A stretch of 12,048 nt of DNA from a virus (lineage: Duplodnaviria > Heunggongvirae > Uroviricota > Caudoviricetes), in IMG/VR virus record IMGVR_UViG_2534682338_000009, positions 1-12,048 of that record; one strand, 5' to 3'. Below, one piece after another: positions 8,171 to 8,360 of the stretch. How positions within the stretch are numbered: position 1 is the stretch's first letter; each line of letters begins with the position of its first letter. The notes under the pieces were generated by a model, which saw nothing but the letters and a program-made list of their open reading frames with translations, was not told where the DNA came from and ran no database searches. A program made the translations under genes and the position numbers.

Positions 8171-8263
8171 ACATAATATAATAAATATAATTTGATAATT
8201 ATACATTATATAGAGAAAACTCATTTATGACATCTACTTTATTACATCCATTATTTATATATA

Positions 8264-8326
8264 CTCATTACTCATTACTCATTACTCATTACTCATTACT
8301 CATTACTCATTACTCATTACTCATTA
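8264..8326. repeat. Perfect tandem heptanucleotide repeat (CTCATTA)x9
   Basis: Nine uninterrupted 7-bp units counted directly from the sequence, in an ~80% AT spacer between the convergent OLD gene and the secreted-protein gene. Confidence 0.95.
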
Positions 8327-8360
8327 ATAAATATTTCTCACTATTTTAAATGAATAATTC

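Follow-up and report, generated by a model that had tools for sequence, protein, structure and literature searches.

Long simple-sequence repeats (SSRs) with units of more than one base are uncommon in Escherichia. In Haemophilus influenzae, the 7-bp repeats upstream of hmw1A and hmw2A vary in number by slippage and, lying between the promoter and the coding region, grade the expression of these genes. A heptanucleotide repeat can also work from within a gene. The polyPsi tract of neuO, carried by prophage CUS-3 of E. coli K1, is such an in-gene repeat, and slipped-strand mispairing makes it phase-variable (PMC9659370). Heptameric SSRs are over-represented in many bacteria, where they are mostly intergenic and variable between close relatives, and slippage has been proposed as the mechanism; the Xanthomonas and Nostoc examples (GGGAATC and GGGGAYT) are G-rich, capable of forming quadruplexes and present in many copies per genome (PMC4692102). 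In Salmonella Typhimurium, STTR6, STTR9 and STTR10 are intergenic VNTR loci used in MLVA typing (PMC5183578).

How does the heptanucleotide tract described here, found in a 12,048-nt stretch of viral DNA (hereafter, the window), compare with these systems? The tract fits the class of intergenic VNTRs represented by STTR6, STTR9 and STTR10. It shares with them a short unit (6-9 bp), an intergenic position, whole-unit changes that are fast relative to SNPs, alleles that run from a few to well over ten units, and the lack of a demonstrated function; it differs in that its unit is 7 bp and that it belongs to the cargo module of an Escherichia (mainly E. fergusonii) prophage. There is a resemblance to neuO, as both are heptanucleotide repeats of Escherichia prophages that lie in or beside a phage-resistance cargo gene and change by slippage, with three units making seven codons and the frame set by n mod 3. 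This likeness is in form only. PolyPsi sits inside a real enzyme gene, and two of its three frames switch neuO off, whereas the open reading frame (ORF) over the present tract lacks a downstream part, conservation and any preferred frame. Like the hmw repeats, the tract is a heptanucleotide array whose copy number varies by slippage, but it is placed downstream of both neighbouring genes. It resembles the Xanthomonas and Nostoc repeats in its heptameric unit, non-coding bias and length variation between close relatives, yet it is AT-rich, unstructured and confined to a single locus. We put the probability at roughly 0.78 that the tract is a hypermutable, functionally neutral heptanucleotide VNTR, driven by slippage, in non-coding prophage DNA.

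The repeat tract and its spacer

The original prediction, made from the sequence of the window, described a perfect 7-bp repeat of nine units. Tandem Repeats Finder (TRF) bears this out, reporting a period-7 array of 9.3 copies with 100% matches, no indels and a score of 130, within which the nine CTCATTA units are read (Table 1). The array is head-to-tail and built of a short unit, as a simple-sequence repeat or VNTR is. Its perfect periodic run measures 65 nt, against 21 nt for the runner-up in the window and 23 nt for the longest run in 300 Markov-1 simulations of the window, and the probability of 58 successive period-7 matches at the spacer's own base composition is about 1e-28. Could such an array be an artefact of assembly? 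This was ruled out by its presence in many independent assemblies, the complete chromosomes CP053045 and CP057354 among them. Searches of phage and plasmid collections with the tract region (BLAST, in near and distant modes) gave no match, and a literature search that covered six of the fourteen rotations and reverse complements of the heptamer found no VNTR or MLVA description of this locus.

Table 1. Coordinates of features in the window (position 1 is its first nucleotide)
Feature	Position	Strand	Remarks
gpA-type large terminase	3500-5422	-	Pfam GpA_ATPase 1.1e-50, GpA_nuclease 2e-41
Stand-alone OLD-family ATP-dependent nuclease (P2 Old type)	6315-8135	+	Upstream flank of the tract
Non-coding spacer	8136-8537	none	402 bp, ~25% GC, between convergent genes
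GC-rich hairpin, 8 bp	8153-8172	+	GCCAGTAC-tagt-GTACTGGC; 18 nt past the OLD stop codon
Best promoter-like match in the spacer	8205-8233	-	ATGTCA-17-TATAAT, 10 of 12; speculative
40-codon ORF spanning the tract	8227-8349	+	Judged spurious, not a gene
VNTR, nine perfect CTCATTA units	8264-8326	none	TRF register TACTCAT, 8262-8326
AT-only inverted repeat	8358-8398	none	18-nt arms, 89% complementary; right of the tract
125-aa protein	8538-8915	-	Signal-peptide-like N-terminus; convergent downstream flank; no family match
177-aa hydrophobic protein		-	Cargo gene right of the tract
225-aa protein		-	Lipobox-like LSGC motif; phrog_1353, function unknown
55-aa and 158-aa proteins		-	Further cargo genes

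The spacer does lie between convergent genes, as had been proposed; the + strand gene ends at 8135 and the - strand gene at 8538. Both flanking genes have the tract downstream, on their 3' side, and its position is therefore non-regulatory for the annotated genes. A near-perfect 28-bp palindrome (TATATGCCAGTACT / AGTACTGGCACATA, 8148-8175) lies 13 nt past the OLD stop codon and includes the GC-rich hairpin. That hairpin folds with a z of -3.4, lacks a U-tail and recurs in the E. coli orthologue, and the OLD transcript likely ends there; the palindrome, conserved in that orthologue as well, could act as a terminator, non-canonical or bidirectional, or else bind a protein. No canonical terminator was scored in the spacer region, the OLD hairpin included, and since this hairpin has no U-tail the tract is possibly part of the OLD 3' UTR. 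The AT-only inverted repeat on the other side forms a weak hairpin whose z-scores (-0.9 and -1.4) are not significant.

The prophage and its cargo module

The window is part of a lambdoid-type prophage of Escherichia (E. fergusonii and some E. coli). A Phage_portal_2 portal gene lies downstream of the terminase, and a large serine recombinase is encoded a few kb past the right end of the window. The OLD gene matches Pfam AAA_15 (9.4e-38) and OLD-like_TOPRIM (2.6e-14), with 'Old' as its best PADLOC model (1.4e-74), and is on these matches a predicted prophage defence moron. The right-hand cargo genes (8538-12048), which occupy the region between the serine recombinase and OLD, are AT-rich, lie entirely on the - strand and are of unknown function. 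The gene for the 225-aa protein also occurs in E. fergusonii CP079884, in another neighbourhood that is without OLD.

Which species carries this prophage? The flanking proteins are named by their sources as belonging to E. coli, E. fergusonii, E. marmotae or 'MULTISPECIES Escherichia'. No genome of the RefSeq complete E. coli set carries the exact OLD protein, which makes E. fergusonii the probable main host. A relative of 88% identity is found in 7 of the 5,426 RefSeq complete E. coli genomes, and there the array is missing.

A sliding comparison of the window with five strains detected a sharp mosaic boundary at ~6105, with packaging genes (3314-6105) that are 80-94% identical on one side and ~100% identity from 6106 to at least 11042 on the other. 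The ~100% identical module consists of the OLD promoter region, OLD, the spacer and the cargo genes; the contrast implies a presumably recent exchange of this cargo module between diverged prophage backbones. The tract itself was considered as the mosaic breakpoint, megablast alignments having stopped there, and rejected: homology runs on both sides of it, and the true boundary is the one at ~6105. Some of the prophage copies are probably defective, because the terminase gene carries single-base indels. These lie at ~4352 and ~4903, one in a single strain and another common to four further strains, and they match split or shortened gene calls (459+167, 252+284 and 484 aa).

The window holds other tandem repeats as well. 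A second perfect one, at 11184-11218 (GACTTTGGATAATT, 2.5 copies), is intergenic and biallelic, with 2.5 or 1.5 copies; in contrast to the heptamer tract, its alleles largely track the lineages. Imperfect 21- and 42-bp tandem repeats at 863-966, within an ORF at 166-1602 on the - strand, encode a glutamate/valine-rich low-complexity stretch (EEVQ.. / EVIEE..) of a 478-aa head-region protein.

Copy-number variation between strains

Alleles of the tract were parsed from assemblies that encode exactly the same flanking proteins, together with one IMG/VR provirus. The sample is non-random, with the longest contigs favoured and similar places collapsed, and copy numbers are as read from assemblies, of which those built from short reads may misjudge long arrays. 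Within this sample copy number across strains, the comparison that the original prediction had proposed, is far from invariant. The 26 complete alleles fall into 13 lengths (2, 3, 4, 5, 6, 7, 8, 9, 10, 11, 12, 14 and 17 units) and, among these 26 assemblies of the locus other than the window, 18 distinct tract structures were found. All of the length differences are whole units, over a range of 14 to 119 nt, and the copy numbers are nearly continuous from 2 to 17 with no favoured value. The two complete chromosomes carry 17 units (CP053045) and 5 units (CP057354).

The alleles form two lineages. One has arrays of pure CTCATTA, 2-10 units long, while in the other a pure block of 2-12 units comes after one to several CTCATTG units on the OLD-proximal (5') side. 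Most of the variation is held by the pure, OLD-distal block, as slippage would predict.

Differences in tract length occur in otherwise near-identical DNA. Over 7.6 kb of flank the window and one other strain (L001) differ by two mismatches, yet the former has nine units and the latter two; GCA_000190855.1 equals the window over 7.6 kb, nine units included. Across six strains the module from 6106 to at least 11042 has ~13 substituted sites outside the tract, and five tract lengths. Nothing else in this recently shared module is nearly as mutable as the tract. Whole-unit differences between close isolates, within conserved flanks, are what distinguishes a VNTR, and they uphold the earlier view of the tract as a substrate for slipped-strand mispairing. 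We infer both that slippage is the mechanism and that the tract is neutral. Four short-read contigs end or begin inside the tract, which is understandable because a long or heterogeneous array is expected to break assemblies.

Relatives and origin of the array

The spacer of E. coli EC28 aligns with that of the window on both sides of the tract at ~80% identity and has, at the tract position, TACTT-TTTCTCATG, about two degenerate units. Another relative, L049, is 91-94% identical to the window and has 10 perfect units. L049 also carries a 518-bp insertion at window position 8454/8455 (~8503-8973 of the L049 reverse complement), which resembles a 94-aa hypothetical gene that adjoins OLD in EC28; a similarly enlarged spacer is seen in L178. 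The window lineage appears to have lost this insertion or never gained it, and from these comparisons the spacer is a junction at which cargo genes are gained and lost.

Beyond these relatives, hits of the OLD protein among the GTDB species all fell in other genera (63-85% identity), and the DNA that follows OLD is unrelated in Citrobacter, Mangrovibacter, Serratia and Erwinia. When the tract was used as a query in IMG/VR, L049 was the one true orthologue, and the exact 35-nt right flank was not found in that collection. The array is best read as a lineage-specific expansion. Its starting point was probably about two degenerate units containing CTCAT, such as the E. coli orthologue still has. 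Replication slippage would add and remove whole 7-bp units, chiefly within the OLD-distal block of pure CTCATTA, and the OLD-proximal CTCATTG variants would be the older and more stable units.

Alternative explanations

Does the tract do anything for the prophage? What speaks against neutrality is a possible location in the OLD 3' UTR, the strongest promoter-like site of the spacer (10 of 12, - strand), which lies right beside the tract, and the adjacent defence gene, since defence genes phase-vary in some bacteria. The tract might be a cis-acting tuner of transcription near OLD, with copy number setting the level of the nuclease, either as an upstream element of the - strand promoter at 8233..8205, antisense to the OLD 3' end, or as a variable 3' UTR that affects the stability of the OLD mRNA. 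The sigma-70-like match starts ~30 nt from the tract, the lack of a U-run at the OLD hairpin makes read-through into the tract plausible, and L049, only 91-94% identical, has kept the array. However, shuffled sequences yield 7.4 +/- 3.0 promoter-like sites and the AT-rich spacer yields 5, no more than chance would give; in the E. coli orthologue the array is missing and the -35-like hexamer is weaker. The near-continuous spread of copy numbers, with no preferred value, also counts against tuning. SSRs that cause transcriptional phase variation (the hmw / nadA type) take up a promoter position, and the tract does not: the only promoter candidate near it is this chance-level - strand match, with no gene behind it. 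We consider such tuning unlikely. That tract length is a contingency element for OLD, acting through an antisense promoter or 3' UTR stability, seems to us quite improbable. If it were true, a lysogen population would have a graded, heritable and reversible spread of defence strength, and the locus would be a slippage-tuned anti-phage system steered from the 3' side of the gene, a new way to vary a defence gene.

Contiguous 7-bp heptad arrays in inc18 plasmids are bound by a ribbon-helix-helix protein. With this precedent, and with perfect head-to-tail units of which three make 21 bp, or two helical turns, the array might be read as a row of protein-binding sites, as the original prediction had also suggested, for instance as an operator, iterons or a centromere-like site. 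Exact (CTCATTA)x4 is somewhat commoner in IMG/VR than two composition-matched control heptamers (8 stretches versus 1 and 2), an excess that is mild at most, and more than 120 metagenome contigs are among the matches listed. L049 is the only match to the same locus among the arrays listed; elsewhere the flanks are unrelated and the GC content ranges over 0.28-0.65, often with arrays of other heptamers alongside. The metagenomic (CTCATTA)n arrays were also considered as a conserved element, which was ruled out by these unrelated flanks and GC contents and by the mildness of the excess. Such an excess accords with the over-representation of heptameric SSRs described in the literature (PMC4692102). 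Environmental contigs carry up to ~59 near-perfect CTCATTA units, with several arrays per contig on both strands and with CTCACCA, CCATTAC and CTCCTAA arrays as neighbours; they look like the heptamer-repeat-rich genomes described for cyanobacteria (PMC4692102).

A binding array would be expected to persist in relatives with a constrained number of sites. Here the unit number is free, falling to 2 in some strains, and orthologous or related elements are without the array. None of the neighbouring genes, several of which are of unknown function, has a Pfam, PADLOC or PHROG match to a DNA-binding family, and there is no obvious need for a partition site because the prophage integrates by a serine recombinase. 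A binding array is, on this evidence, very unlikely.

Is the 40-codon ORF over the tract a gene? It was correctly described as running from an ATG at 8227 to a TAA at 8347-8349, with a 40-aa product (MTSTLLHPLFIYTHYSLLITHYSLLITHYSLLINKYFSLF) in which three CTCATTA units encode one THYSLLI heptad, and it could be taken for a real small peptide whose length and C-terminus vary by slippage. An ATG-initiated ORF is present in every close-lineage strain, whatever the copy number; the unit is stop-free in every + frame; and three units per seven residues recall the neuO polyPsi tract of CUS-3 (PMC9659370). There is nothing downstream to switch, however. No + frame has a stop within the tract, and each of the three reaches one within 25 nt beyond it, leaving tails of 2-10 residues (..TH, ..LINISHYFK or ..LLINKYFSLF), so that the products across alleles, of 21-60 aa, vary in heptad number and tail only. 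The frame shift that had been foreseen upon gain or loss of a unit is real, but its consequence is limited to an exchange of this tail. No frame loses a functional part, and there is no conserved gene, as there is in a translational ON/OFF phase-variation locus of the neuO / polyPsi type. Nor is any frame preferred, the n mod 3 classes of the alleles being 7/7/12 (chi-square p = 0.38).

In the E. coli EC28 orthologue the start codon is ATA, and no + strand ORF of at least 20 aa covers the equivalent stretch. Among the complete contexts of the fetched assemblies the spacer has no annotated gene, gene calls in it being limited to partial ORFs at contig ends, and seven peptide variants sought among ~15 billion proteins were all absent; the peptide has no PHROG match. 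The ribosome-binding site is as weak as had been noted, consisting of a poor Shine-Dalgarno match, GAGA, ~10-13 nt upstream of the start. These observations contradict the earlier suggestion of a phase-variable leader or small peptide and make a real peptide here extremely doubtful. A small hydrophobic peptide resembling a type I toxin was ruled out by the non-conservation and by the absence from protein records. The ORF would be an accident of the unit sequence, in which a stop-free CTCATTA follows an ATG that chances to lie upstream.

A structured non-coding RNA, also among the earlier suggestions and in keeping with an intergenic tract flanked by two inverted repeats, is effectively refuted: the tract RNA has neither a stable or conserved structure nor a known family, with an MFE of 0 kcal/mol on the + strand, a z-score of 0.08 on the - strand, a length that varies from 14 to 119 nt, and no Rfam match at E <= 1 save one chance-level hit outside the tract.

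Significance of the locus

What, then, does a probably neutral VNTR mean for this prophage? Its mechanistic importance is small, the tract being one more intergenic microsatellite. It does explain why short-read assemblies break at this spot, and it illustrates well, in a natural setting, how a heptameric SSR arises from about two degenerate units and grows to 17. With 18 alleles in 26 assemblies inside a nearly invariant cargo module, the tract is of value as a highly discriminating marker and could help to track the prophage or lineages of E. fergusonii and E. coli.
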